Source of the DNA: Gammaproteobacteria bacterium
Lineage (GTDB): Bacteria; Pseudomonadota; Gammaproteobacteria; UBA6186; Azoamicaceae
Assembly (NCBI GenBank): GCA_044225595.1
Contig: JBGAIG010000008.1
Span: 3,639 to 67,638 of the forward strand
Direction: 5' to 3'
DNA length: 64,000 nt
Shown here in pieces: positions 59,285-60,865 of this stretch; the stretch's first letter is position 1; each line of letters begins with the position of its first letter. The position numbers and the translations under genes were made by a program. The notes under the pieces were generated by a model. That model did not search any database, had not been told where the DNA came from, and saw nothing but the letters and a program-made list of their open reading frames with translations.

Positions 59285-60865
59285 ATGATTAAAGAAAATG
59301 TTTTAAACTGCTTTAACGACAACTCTAATGTTGATACTCCCGTTCATTTTTTGGACAAGGAGACTAGAACCCAAGATCCTGTCACCTTATACATGCGTGA
59401 GGCAAGAACCTTGGCCTTATTGAATTCCGAACAAGAAACTAATCTTGCAAAGCGTATAGAAGAAAGCATCAGAGAAATATGCCTGGTTGCGGCTGCTTAT
59501 CCTACGTCCCTCAAACCGCTTTTTAAAGCCTTTAAAGCTGTTCAAAAGGGTCAGCGTAAAATGTATACGCTTATCTCTGGACTACGGCCTTTAAACGTTG
59601 GTCAAACGCCCGGATCCGGCTTTTTAGAAACACCTGATTTACGCACAATATCCCCTCAAGAAATTGAAGCACGATTGAAAACCTTATTGCATTTGAAACG
59701 CCAAGCCGAATGGGCTTTATCGTCTCCAAAAAGCCTACCAAGCTCAGGTGTCATGACAGCTATCCAAAATTTAGGTGAAAGTTTAGCTTGCTTTAAATGG
59801 ACACCACGCGCATTGACGCTTTTAGGTCGTTCTTTAAAAACACTTGTTGAACAAGTTAGCACGATAAAAGCACACATGATTCGTCTTTGCAATCCATCTA
59901 AAATCTCTTGCCAACACTTCGCCAGTTCTTTTGAAAATCATTCAACAGAACTTGAATGGCTGTGGTCGCATACTGAGCTCAAAGATTATTCTGAAATGGC
60001 TGGTTTGCACCAACGCGTAATAGACATCGAGAAATCCACGAGATTAAAAGGTACAGAGATTAAATTACTCAATCAACGTCTTTGTCAGGCGGAGACTGAA
60101 TTACATCAGGCTAAAGAGTCTATGATTAAAGCCAATTTACGCTTAGTGTTATCCATTGCACGAGCATACAAAGGCAAAGGCTTGGCGTTTTCAGATCTGA
60201 TCCAATCCGGTAATATGGGTTTAATCAAAGCCGTTGATCGCTTTGATTATCATTTGGGTTACAAATTTTCTACTTTTGCAATCCACTGGATACGTCAATC
60301 TATGACCCAAGCAATTGCAAACCAAGGGCGCAATATTCGTTTATCCCGGCGTAAGATAGACGAGATCTATCATTTAAATCGTATTGAACGTCAACTTTGC
60401 CAGGAGCAGAGCCAAAAACCCACCACCCAAGAATTAGCCAAACATCTTGGTTTTTCGATTTCCAAAACGCATAGTCTTTTGAGAGCCGCCAAAGAGACGC
60501 TTTCCTTAGAAAAAGCGACGGATTCAGAGGACGGTTGCTTTTCTATCGCAGATAGTCTTGTTGATCAAAACACGCCTTCACCCCTGGAAGCATTAACAAC
60601 ACGCTGTGCGCATAAAACGGTTCATCAGCTTTTAGCGCAATTAAAGCCTCGGTATAGCTTGGTTTTAAAAATGCGTTTTGGGCTGGAGGGGGAACCAAAC
60701 ACCCTAAGAGAAATCAGTCAAGTATTGGGTGTAACCACACAATGCGTTAGCCAAATCGAAATGAGTGCTTTAGCCAAGCTTAGACAGTTGATGAGCCAAG
60801 ATATCAGCTCAAAAAAGCCAATGGACAGGAATCCGATAGAGTTAGTTATTAATCAAAATATTTAA
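59285..60865 (+). CDS. ICE-encoded RpoD-like sigma-70 family factor (regions 1.2, 2, 3 and 4 present; no region 1.1)
   Basis: Region 1.2 'DPVTLYMREARTLALL..EQETNLAKRIEE'. Region 2 'ANLRLVLSIARAYKGKGLAFSDLIQSGNMGLIKAVDRFDYHLGYKFSTFAIHWIRQSM'. Region 4.2 'TLREISQVLGVTTQCVSQIEMSALAKLR'. Start at ATG 59285, with aAGGAa 8 nt upstream. Confidence 0.9.
   Translation: MIKENVLNCFNDNSNVDTPVHFLDKETRTQDPVTLYMREARTLALLNSEQETNLAKRIEESIREICLVAAAYPTSLKPLFKAFKAVQKGQRKMYTLISGLRPLNVGQTPGSGFLETPDLRTISPQEIEARLKTLLHLKRQAEWALSSPKSLPSSGVMTAIQNLGESLACFKWTPRALTLLGRSLKTLVEQVSTIKAHMIRLCNPSKISCQHFASSFENHSTELEWLWSHTELKDYSEMAGLHQRVIDIEKSTRLKGTEIKLLNQRLCQAETELHQAKESMIKANLRLVLSIARAYKGKGLAFSDLIQSGNMGLIKAVDRFDYHLGYKFSTFAIHWIRQSMTQAIANQGRNIRLSRRKIDEIYHLNRIERQLCQEQSQKPTTQELAKHLGFSISKTHSLLRAAKETLSLEKATDSEDGCFSIADSLVDQNTPSPLEALTTRCAHKTVHQLLAQLKPRYSLVLKMRFGLEGEPNTLREISQVLGVTTQCVSQIEMSALAKLRQLMSQDISSKKPMDRNPIELVINQNI

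Follow-up and report, generated by a model that had tools for sequence, protein, structure and literature searches.

What does a sigma factor derived from RpoD do on a conjugative element? The question is raised by the stretch of DNA analysed here, 64,000 nucleotides from a gammaproteobacterium of the Azoamicaceae (the window; all positions are counted within it), in which an integrative and conjugative element (ICE) lies beside the host rpoD and carries a sigma-70-family gene of its own (59285..60865, + strand). A preliminary description of this DNA had proposed that the product binds core RNA polymerase (RNAP) and reads a different promoter. The residue pattern of the protein and the purifying selection on its family fit this proposal.

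The gene encodes an RpoD-derived protein of 526 amino acids made up of regions 1.2, the non-conserved region (NCR), 2, 3 and 4. Its frame is intact: it is open from 59252, counts 526 codons from the ATG at 59285, and its stop codon ends at 60865. The ATG at 59285 was taken as the start because the N-termini of the short-form homologues (MIKE.../MIEE...) match there. Pfam detects Sigma70_r1_2, Sigma70_ner, r2, r3 and r4, with scores above the gathering thresholds for region 2 (65.9 bits vs 24), region 3 (39.6 vs 25.3) and region 4 (51.5 vs 24.1); the NCR is recognized as PF04546 (42.4 bits vs a cutoff of 29.7, positions 73-199 of the hidden Markov model). Region 1.1 (PF03979) has no match in this protein or in any member of its clade, just 26-30 residues preceding region 1.2, whereas the host RpoD (13027..14919) shows all six domains including r1_1. 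The Pfam domains therefore agree with the earlier statement that regions 1.2, 2, 3 and 4 and the spacer are kept while region 1.1 is gone, and the protein strings quoted with it were correct on recheck.

By BLASTP the element sigma is 37% identical to the host RpoD over 511 amino acids (E=2e-101), and among solved structures it matches E. coli sigma-70 best (E=1e-74). Its best phage family match, PHROG 351 'RNA polymerase sigma factor', reflects generic sigma-70 homology. Like gammaproteobacterial RpoD, it has the domain order 1.2, NCR, 2, 3, 4 and identical core-docking residues. Unlike RpoD, the element sigmas lack region 1.1, have a shortened NCR without the acidic insert and are only 33-38% identical to it. 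They are also element-borne, score below the RpoD equivalog cutoff and lie outside the rpsU-dnaG-rpoD operon: the host rpoD follows dnaG in this context, and the ICE copy instead follows the relaxase gene and the origin of transfer (oriT).

The family to which this protein belongs is small and sharply bounded. In a search of 5.8 billion proteins, about 20 relatives were recovered, which share 40-90% identity with it, score 325-1026 bits and all lack region 1.1; after these the scores fell sharply, ordinary RpoDs reaching at most 285 bits. When 1.84 billion representatives clustered at 50% identity were searched with a profile, only three clade representatives were found (855, 699 and 468 bits), with ordinary sigmas starting from 442 bits. 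A profile scan of 185,579 species-representative genomes gave a single genome with a clade member, an uncultured Candidatus Berkiella metagenome-assembled genome (MAG; locus L008), and an exact-pattern genome scan with the single sigma protein gave no matches. None of the 72,556 PLSDB plasmids carries a clade member; the top 'plasmid rpoD' matches in PLSDB were rejected as analogues, being housekeeping rpoD genes in chromosome-like records. Among the matches listed in a scan of metagenome contigs, there were only ordinary primary sigmas at no more than 43% identity.

In a neighbour-joining tree the clade is monophyletic and falls outside both RpoD and RpoS. Because region 1.2 and the NCR are present, the sequences point to a derivative of proteobacterial RpoD that subsequently evolved fast; in one clade member (P0020) the NCR has been deleted. 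The clade is under purifying selection, with pairwise dN/dS values of 0.17-0.39 and synonymous sites of the sigma gene that are saturated. This constraint is far weaker than expected of a housekeeping sigma. There are two subgroups, a long one of 565-577 amino acids and a short one of 442-522 amino acids, and the 526-aa copy of the window belongs with the short one.

Within the clade the core interface is kept, and the surfaces that read DNA have taken on a new, conserved form, which varies between elements at specificity positions. This was seen in a survey of 21 clade sequences in E. coli sigma-70 numbering (in region 2, the window residue + 99, as set by alignment to E. coli sigma-70), with the functional roles of the positions taken from the established sigma-70 literature. 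The core-docking residues N383, L384, L386, V387, D403, Q406 and N409 are invariant in 21/21, and E407, of the same set, is serine in all 21. On the -10/melting surface, F419, F427, S428, T429, W434 and R436 are invariant, and W433 is never tryptophan, being replaced in 21/21 by N, G, T, H or A. At the neighbouring positions R423 is L or F (21/21), R441 is Q (20/21) and Y425 is Cys (16/21), with Q437 found as Q or H and T440 as I or T. For the extended -10, R451 is invariant, H455 is kept in 19 of the 21 sequences and E458 in 18. In the -35 helix, R554, R562 and Q589 are invariant, E585Q is universal (21/21), R588 is S or N throughout (21/21), R584K is found in 17/21, and position 586 is R, W or C. 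Clade-wide, the differences from RpoD are E407S, W433X, R423L, R441Q, E585Q and R588S/N. Such a pattern fits what is expected of sigmas with altered, possibly element-specific promoters.

The copy in the window has W433H, Y430F, R423L, R441Q, P453S, V454R, H455R, M456K, R584T, E585Q, R586C and R588S. It had been claimed that the first melting tryptophan becomes histidine and that the R-E-R..R contacts to the -35 element are replaced; both changes are present, the former as W433H at a position replaced in every clade member, the latter as R584T, E585Q, R586C and R588S, of which E585Q and R588S/N are clade-wide. The third claim, that loss of the IPVHM block alters recognition, stands in part: the block is indeed lost here (P453S, H455R), but the loss is not clade-typical and, being private to this copy, could be degenerative. 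The changes that had been seen as altered recognition are thus in part typical of the clade (W433, R-E-R..R) and in part private (IPVHM, Y430F).

The genes around the sigma form one module at every readable locus of the clade. A ribbon-helix-helix (RHH) gene on the opposite strand is followed by about 0.8 kb of intergenic DNA, after which all genes lie on the sigma strand. The order does not vary: after RHH come the repeats and the nic motif, next ArdA, ArdA, DnaJ, DUF6573 or a small helical protein, and last sigma itself, with ArdA genes found 5' of sigma in L001-L008. In the long subgroup the order reads ArdA, ArdA, a 69-aa open reading frame (ORF), a DnaJ-domain protein, DUF6573 and the sigma of 565-577 aa, followed by a 98-aa ORF, a receiver-domain protein and paralogous proteins of 110-195 aa. 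In the short subgroup a conserved protein of 81-94 aa is encoded immediately 5' of sigma. At L002 the module is contiguous with a 2052-aa TraI protein that has the same domain set as the window relaxase. The preliminary description had called the sigma element-borne, and the finding of a separate clade, always in a conjugation module and away from the chromosomal RpoD and RpoS paralogues, bears this out.

In the window, the RHH gene (57275..57664, - strand, weak Pfam RHH_1, probable ATG at 57664) is transcribed away from oriT and probably encodes a relaxosome accessory factor or regulator; its product is 61-68% identical to the RHH proteins of L002 and L006 and 46% to that of L088. 3' of the sigma gene lies a gene for an Rpn/YhgA-like PD-(D/E)XK protein (61050..61934, + strand, Pfam PDDEXK_2, E=1.6e-44), and Rpn/YhgA-like (Transposase_31/DUF4351) genes recur 3' of sigma in L001, L002 and L006. 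In the long subgroup, a conserved seven-codon mini-ORF (MNKTFIL) and then two conserved hairpins stand between sigma and the next gene (L002 11726..11961, L006 11092..11370, L008 9104..9306), an arrangement that resembles a leader-peptide attenuator.

Next to the RHH gene, an array of five GTAATACA repeats and three inverted TGTATTAC repeats (57687..57832), possibly operator or accessory-protein sites, is found in the window, and L002 has the same repeat. The repeats differ by element, other iterons standing at the equivalent place in L006, L004, L008, L088, L001 and L090. The variants adjoining RHH include GTAATACA, TGTATAC, GTGTTACA.CGTCACAC, CAATCGGTGGCA and TTTTTAAGACAATTGGCGACA, and the neighbouring nic block is conserved. 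Together, the element-specific repeats and the RHH proteins look like co-evolving pairs of accessory protein and operator.

Beyond the repeats lies a conserved non-coding oriT block (57841..58200, + strand), which over about 360 nt shares 63-70% identity with seven relatives, a conservation that holds although the synonymous sites of the sigma gene are saturated. Within it, an F-like nic motif, GCGTCCGGTGT/GC with the slash marking the putative nick (57911..57923, + strand), is unique in the window; its consensus, GCGTC[CA]GGTGTGC, occurs once, on the + strand, in each of L001, L002, L004, L006, L008, L088, L090 and L091. In F, the strand cut at nic departs from there in the 5' to 3' direction. 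The window motif matches the F plasmid nic (GCGTGGGGTGT/GGTGC) at 11 of 13 positions; in NC_002483 the F site was located on the other strand from traM and the leading genes. By analogy with the polarity of the F nic, 57911..57923 would be the nick site, the + strand would be transferred and the DNA to the right of 57923 would enter first. The sigma gene would then lie about 1.4 kb into the leading region and, since it is just 3' of the putative transfer origin, would be among the first genes to enter the recipient. In L090 and L091, the small gene and sigma are the first unit after nic. Where the relatives have the ArdA promoter and genes, the window has an ORF of 123 aa (58204..58575, + strand), with no homologue in the related modules and no Pfam, PADLOC or PHROGs match.

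How would such a gene be expressed? The best + strand match in a promoter scan (10/12) is a sigma-70-type promoter, TTGATT-N17-TATAAT (58791..58819, + strand), which serves the small-gene/sigma unit and recurs at the same position, with its sequence conserved, in L090, L091 and L092. The ArdA operon of the long subgroup has a promoter of the form TTGCAT-N17-TATATT. Because the expression signals are of the sigma-70 type, the element sigma is probably made by the host holoenzyme. The promoter is followed by a structured leader (58826..58941, + strand; minimum free energy -42 kcal/mol, z=-4.9) with three hairpins and a CA-rich stretch that would pair with the Shine-Dalgarno sequence and AUG. This leader of about 120 nt is conserved in L090-L092, and a consensus fold over the four loci contains three compensatory pairs. 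The CA-rich stretch reads CCUAACCACAACCAACU. The leader also has GGA motifs, noted here beside the CsrA paralogue that a related ICE (L178) encodes. An Rfam match to SymR on the minus strand over the leader hairpins (58876..58947) was sub-threshold (35.9 vs 61 bits) and was judged spurious. After the sigma gene, a terminator-like hairpin with a U tract is predicted (60889..60931, + strand; fold -22.2 kcal/mol, z=-3.45).

The small partner gene directly 5' of sigma is intact in L001, L088, L090, L091 and L092, and the intact family comprises five clusters only. AlphaFold2 (AF2) models its product as a helical hairpin, with a predicted local distance difference test score (pLDDT) of 81. A Foldseek search with this model returned generic helical hairpins only (E>0.1), so that an AsiA-like or anti-sigma fold gains no support; the protein has no PADLOC or PHROGs match and no precomputed Pfam entry. 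In the long sigma subgroup, no fused copy of this partner is detectable in the N-terminal extension (best E=0.03).

From these features we propose that an alternative sigma, derived from proteobacterial RpoD, has become fixed in a family of F-type elements of uncultured Legionellales/Berkiella-like gammaproteobacteria, where its gene would sit just 3' of the nick site, on the DNA predicted to enter the recipient first. Once the incoming strand had been made double-stranded, the host holoenzyme would transcribe the gene from its sigma-70-type promoter. The protein, with its core-docking surfaces retained, region 1.1 lost and the -35 helix and part of the -10/melting surface rewritten, would load host core onto element promoters that host sigma-70 fails to recognize, with a non-canonical -35 and a modified -10. 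The outcome would be an early transcription programme of the element's own, as with phage-encoded sigmas. We give this account about an even chance of being right. It is also tempting to speculate on a fuller, phage-like temporal cascade, in which the first unit to enter would consist of an orthogonal RpoD-derived sigma and its two-helix partner that together re-programme the core, while the diversifying residues 433, 437, 440, 584, 586 and 588 keep the programmes of different elements private. This extension is tentative, and we consider it possible rather than probable.

Several observations weigh against the proposed programme. The preliminary description had envisaged a shared non-sigma-70 motif in the intergenic regions of the element, an expectation that was not borne out: in a k-mer search, 16 upstream regions of the ICE yielded A-tract noise only, no better than shuffles, and the conserved intergenic regions, inspected by eye, showed sigma-70-type promoters only. 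The AF2 model of the sigma itself is poor (pLDDT 63). The nick site is assigned by similarity to F only, and the leading genes are sense-oriented on the putative transferred strand (T-strand), unlike those of F and most leading regions; with this orientation, expression must await second-strand synthesis. The remaining points concern the copy in the window. Compared with its nearest relative, P0001 (90% identity), 12 of the 62 differences fall within residues 331-360 (regions 2.3-3.0). Seven substitutions are private, at sites invariant in all other members, a larger number than in any other full-length member, and four of the seven are in regions 2.3-3.0 (Y430F, T432I, I439M and P453S); H455R is specific to the window lineage and private among full-length members. 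When polarised by the rest of the clade, the lineage-specific changes number 27 in the window and 13 in P0001 (p=0.04). The partner gene is a frameshifted remnant of the 81-94 aa two-helix protein (58942..59179, + strand), as seen from tblastn matches in two frames and from translations and alignment, and in the window module the ArdA, DnaJ, DUF6573 and receiver (response-regulator) genes and the downstream paralogues are absent. As a separate observation, the contig with P0001 does not carry the same RpoD cluster as the window.

The window module is thus eroded, and the activity of this copy may be altered or weakened. The alternative that survives best builds on this erosion: the family would be functional and this copy a remnant, drifting towards a pseudogene or a changed function, which would be compatible with the proposal made above for the family. 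Besides the frameshifted partner, the missing genes, the private changes and the excess of lineage-specific ones, the Shine-Dalgarno sequence has weakened to AAAGGAAC. On the other hand, the 526-codon frame is stop-free, promoter, leader and terminator are retained, and most of the changes are conservative; the modest excess could also be adaptive retuning, and frameshifts in MAG contigs can be assembly errors. We regard decay of this copy as unlikely, with a weight that is nonetheless appreciable.

A second alternative is that the sigma acts as a decoy or competitor, which binds host core chiefly to displace sigma-70 and so damps host transcription, for example of defence or SOS genes, during establishment, instead of reading promoters dedicated to it. 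The invariant core-docking residues together with the loss of canonical -35 and melting residues would suit this role, as would the empty search for a target motif and the anti-restriction genes that adjoin sigma in the relatives. However, the DNA-reading helices have not decayed: Q585, S/N588, Q589, K584, R554 and R562 show little or no variation, and W434, R436, F427, S428 and T429 show none. Because these helices are conserved in a new form, we argue for sequence-specific DNA binding and disfavour the decoy, for which, moreover, regions 3 and 4 under purifying selection would be unneeded. We consider it improbable, and the loading of host core onto the element's own promoters remains the account that we prefer.

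The two weakest alternatives concern the identity of the protein. A defence sigma like MzaA, carried as ICE cargo, might be suggested by matches to the MzaA models of NCBIfam (257 bits) and PADLOC (E=1e-39), but the former lies far below its cutoff of 800 bits, the housekeeping RpoD of the host scores higher on the same model (439 bits), and the neighbours include no other Mza component or defence match, so this reading is rejected as very improbable. The phylogenetic placement that the preliminary description had proposed as a check puts the protein in a clade of its own, with all NCBIfam cutoffs missed: the best match is the RpoD equivalog model PRK05658, though its 336 bits stay below the cutoff of 555, which the host RpoD passes with 796.7, and the scores on the RpoS models TIGR02394 (206.5 vs 378.7) and PRK05657 (187.4 vs 394) also fall short. 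The NCR, a region absent from RpoS, likewise sets the protein apart from that group. That the gene is an ordinary chromosomal RpoD or RpoS paralogue near an island, as that best match and an NCR typical of proteobacterial RpoD might suggest, is refuted by these scores, by the missing region 1.1 and the position in the tree, by the single genome among 185,579, and by its place between relaxase/oriT and further element genes within the same conjugation module as elsewhere, leaving next to no probability for it.

How does this sigma compare with those already known from mobile genetic elements? Phage sigmas such as SPO1 gp28 and T4 gp55 are small, highly reduced proteins that redirect host RNAP. 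The proposal made here resembles them in that a mobile element would supply its own sigma early, made by the host holoenzyme, to switch RNAP; the ICE sigma differs in that it derives from RpoD at almost full length and belongs to a conjugative element. SigN of Bacillus subtilis is a small alternative sigma that is DNA-damage-induced and causes cell death; it is not known to resemble RpoD in having an NCR or to be encoded at a transfer origin. SigN (ZpdN) is encoded by plasmid pBS32 and belongs to the sigma-70 family, with its own regulon (PMC6751061, PMC10601692); sigmas encoded by mobile genetic elements, among them phage sigmas and SigN, are therefore already known (PMC6751061). In our literature search, no near full-length RpoD derivative was described as fixed at a conjugative transfer origin, and no sigma factor was described in Legionella-type ICEs. 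Those ICEs share with the present element the integration at a tRNA gene, F-type tra genes and Ank and CBUA0006_C effector-like cargo, and no sigma factor is known from them.

The current explanation for early gene expression from newly entering conjugative DNA is that host sigma-70 works on single-stranded DNA or on ordinary promoters. The layout of R388, with trwA, oriT and then the divergent stbA-ardC, resembles the ICE sigma module. In a survey of leading regions (Samuel et al. 2024, PMC11541004), leading genes use the T-strand as template and have single-stranded DNA promoters, and sigma factors are mentioned 0 times. The ICE module is like these regions in its predicted position just 3' of nic and in having ArdA in the same operon (in the relatives, not in the window); it differs in that the genes are sense on the predicted T-strand. 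If our proposal is true, it would add a new layer to this process, with an element bringing its own promoter-recognition subunit as phages do. A natural sigma-70 variant in which the core interface is kept and the -35/melting surface is rewritten would also be useful for the study of sigma specificity and as a part for orthogonal transcription. The case is built from sequence inference on a rare family of uncultured hosts, with a window copy that is possibly impaired; it is testable, not established.

The element itself is an F-type ICE integrated at tRNA-Met, with an integrase at the tRNA, a type IV secretion system (T4SS), a coupling protein and a relaxase, in line with the earlier statement that the sigma is ICE-encoded. 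The tRNA-Met gene (14968..15044, + strand; ARAGORN, Rfam tRNA) stands just after the host rpoD and marks the attL side, followed by a tyrosine recombinase, the ICE integrase (15144..16286, - strand; Pfam Phage_integrase, E=9.7e-12). No second copy of the tRNA-Met 3' end was found within the window, and the right end of the ICE (attR) therefore lies beyond it. Between integrase and T4SS are cargo and regulatory genes. The F-type T4SS genes (31573..48661, + strand; Pfam) are TraE, K, B/TrbI, V, C, a signal peptidase, U, TrbC, N, F, H and G. They are followed by a type IV coupling protein of the TraD/TrwB type (49028..50929, + strand; Pfam TrwB_AAD_bind, E=5e-125) and by a MOBF relaxase-helicase of 2065 aa (50889..57086, + strand), TrwC-type with a primase-like C-terminal DUF7146 and Toprim (Pfam TrwC, AAA_30, DUF7146, Toprim_3). 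A Toprim_3 primase that enters the recipient with the DNA would fit leading genes that need second-strand synthesis.

The host belongs to an uncultured gammaproteobacterial lineage represented by MAGs. In a relative of the host (RpoD 87% identical), another ICE, related but distinct, occupies this rpoD-tRNA site (locus L178, 7370..14362), and the site appears to be an ICE hotspot. The content of that ICE includes an integrase, the CsrA paralogue adjoining it, DUF6475, GerE and TraL/E/K. In the window, a small ORF of the LuxR/GerE helix-turn-helix (HTH) type at about 30620..30900 (+ strand; motif ...LTERQKQIGVCLLAGMPPKKIASRFKLSVSTVREHQAAIKEKL..., read by eye from the DNA) lies just 5' of the pilin/TraL/TraE genes; a GerE gene is at the equivalent position in the L178 ICE, and the ORF is likely a regulator of the tra operon. 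The T4SS run is interrupted by a group II intron recognized by Rfam (39163..41077, + strand; D1-D4 model 137.9 bits, domain V/VI model 43.1 bits), which lies in the tra operon with traU on one side and trbC on the other. Two ORFs (39643..40137 and 40214..40963) share its broken reverse-transcriptase frame, so that the maturase may be defective or the assembly in error. These ORFs had raised the idea of a diversity-generating retroelement acting on the sigma, which was rejected because the reverse transcriptase belongs to the group II intron.

The cargo is varied. A protein of 1075 aa (18043..21270, + strand) combines a LuxR-type HTH with an NB-ARC domain, of the STAND (signal transduction ATPases with numerous domains) NTPases, and tetratricopeptide repeats (TPR), an architecture like that of NLR (nucleotide-binding, leucine-rich repeat) proteins and as found in anti-phage sensors; PADLOC gave generic TPR matches only for it. 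It is followed by a gene for peptide deformylase (21344..21964, + strand). Two paralogous pairs are present, YdaS-like HTH proteins (17095..17904 and 25683..26528) and DUF6475 proteins (27468..27923 and 29930..30604), and between the members of the latter pair lies an N6-methylase with a fused type I S-domain (28092..29954). Finally, an ORF beyond the sigma gene (62844..63764, + strand) shares 46-51% identity with a CBUA0006_C-type domain that is repeated in a 1376-aa ankyrin-repeat protein encoded next to TraI in L002, and is effector-like cargo typical of Coxiella/Legionella-type bacteria.

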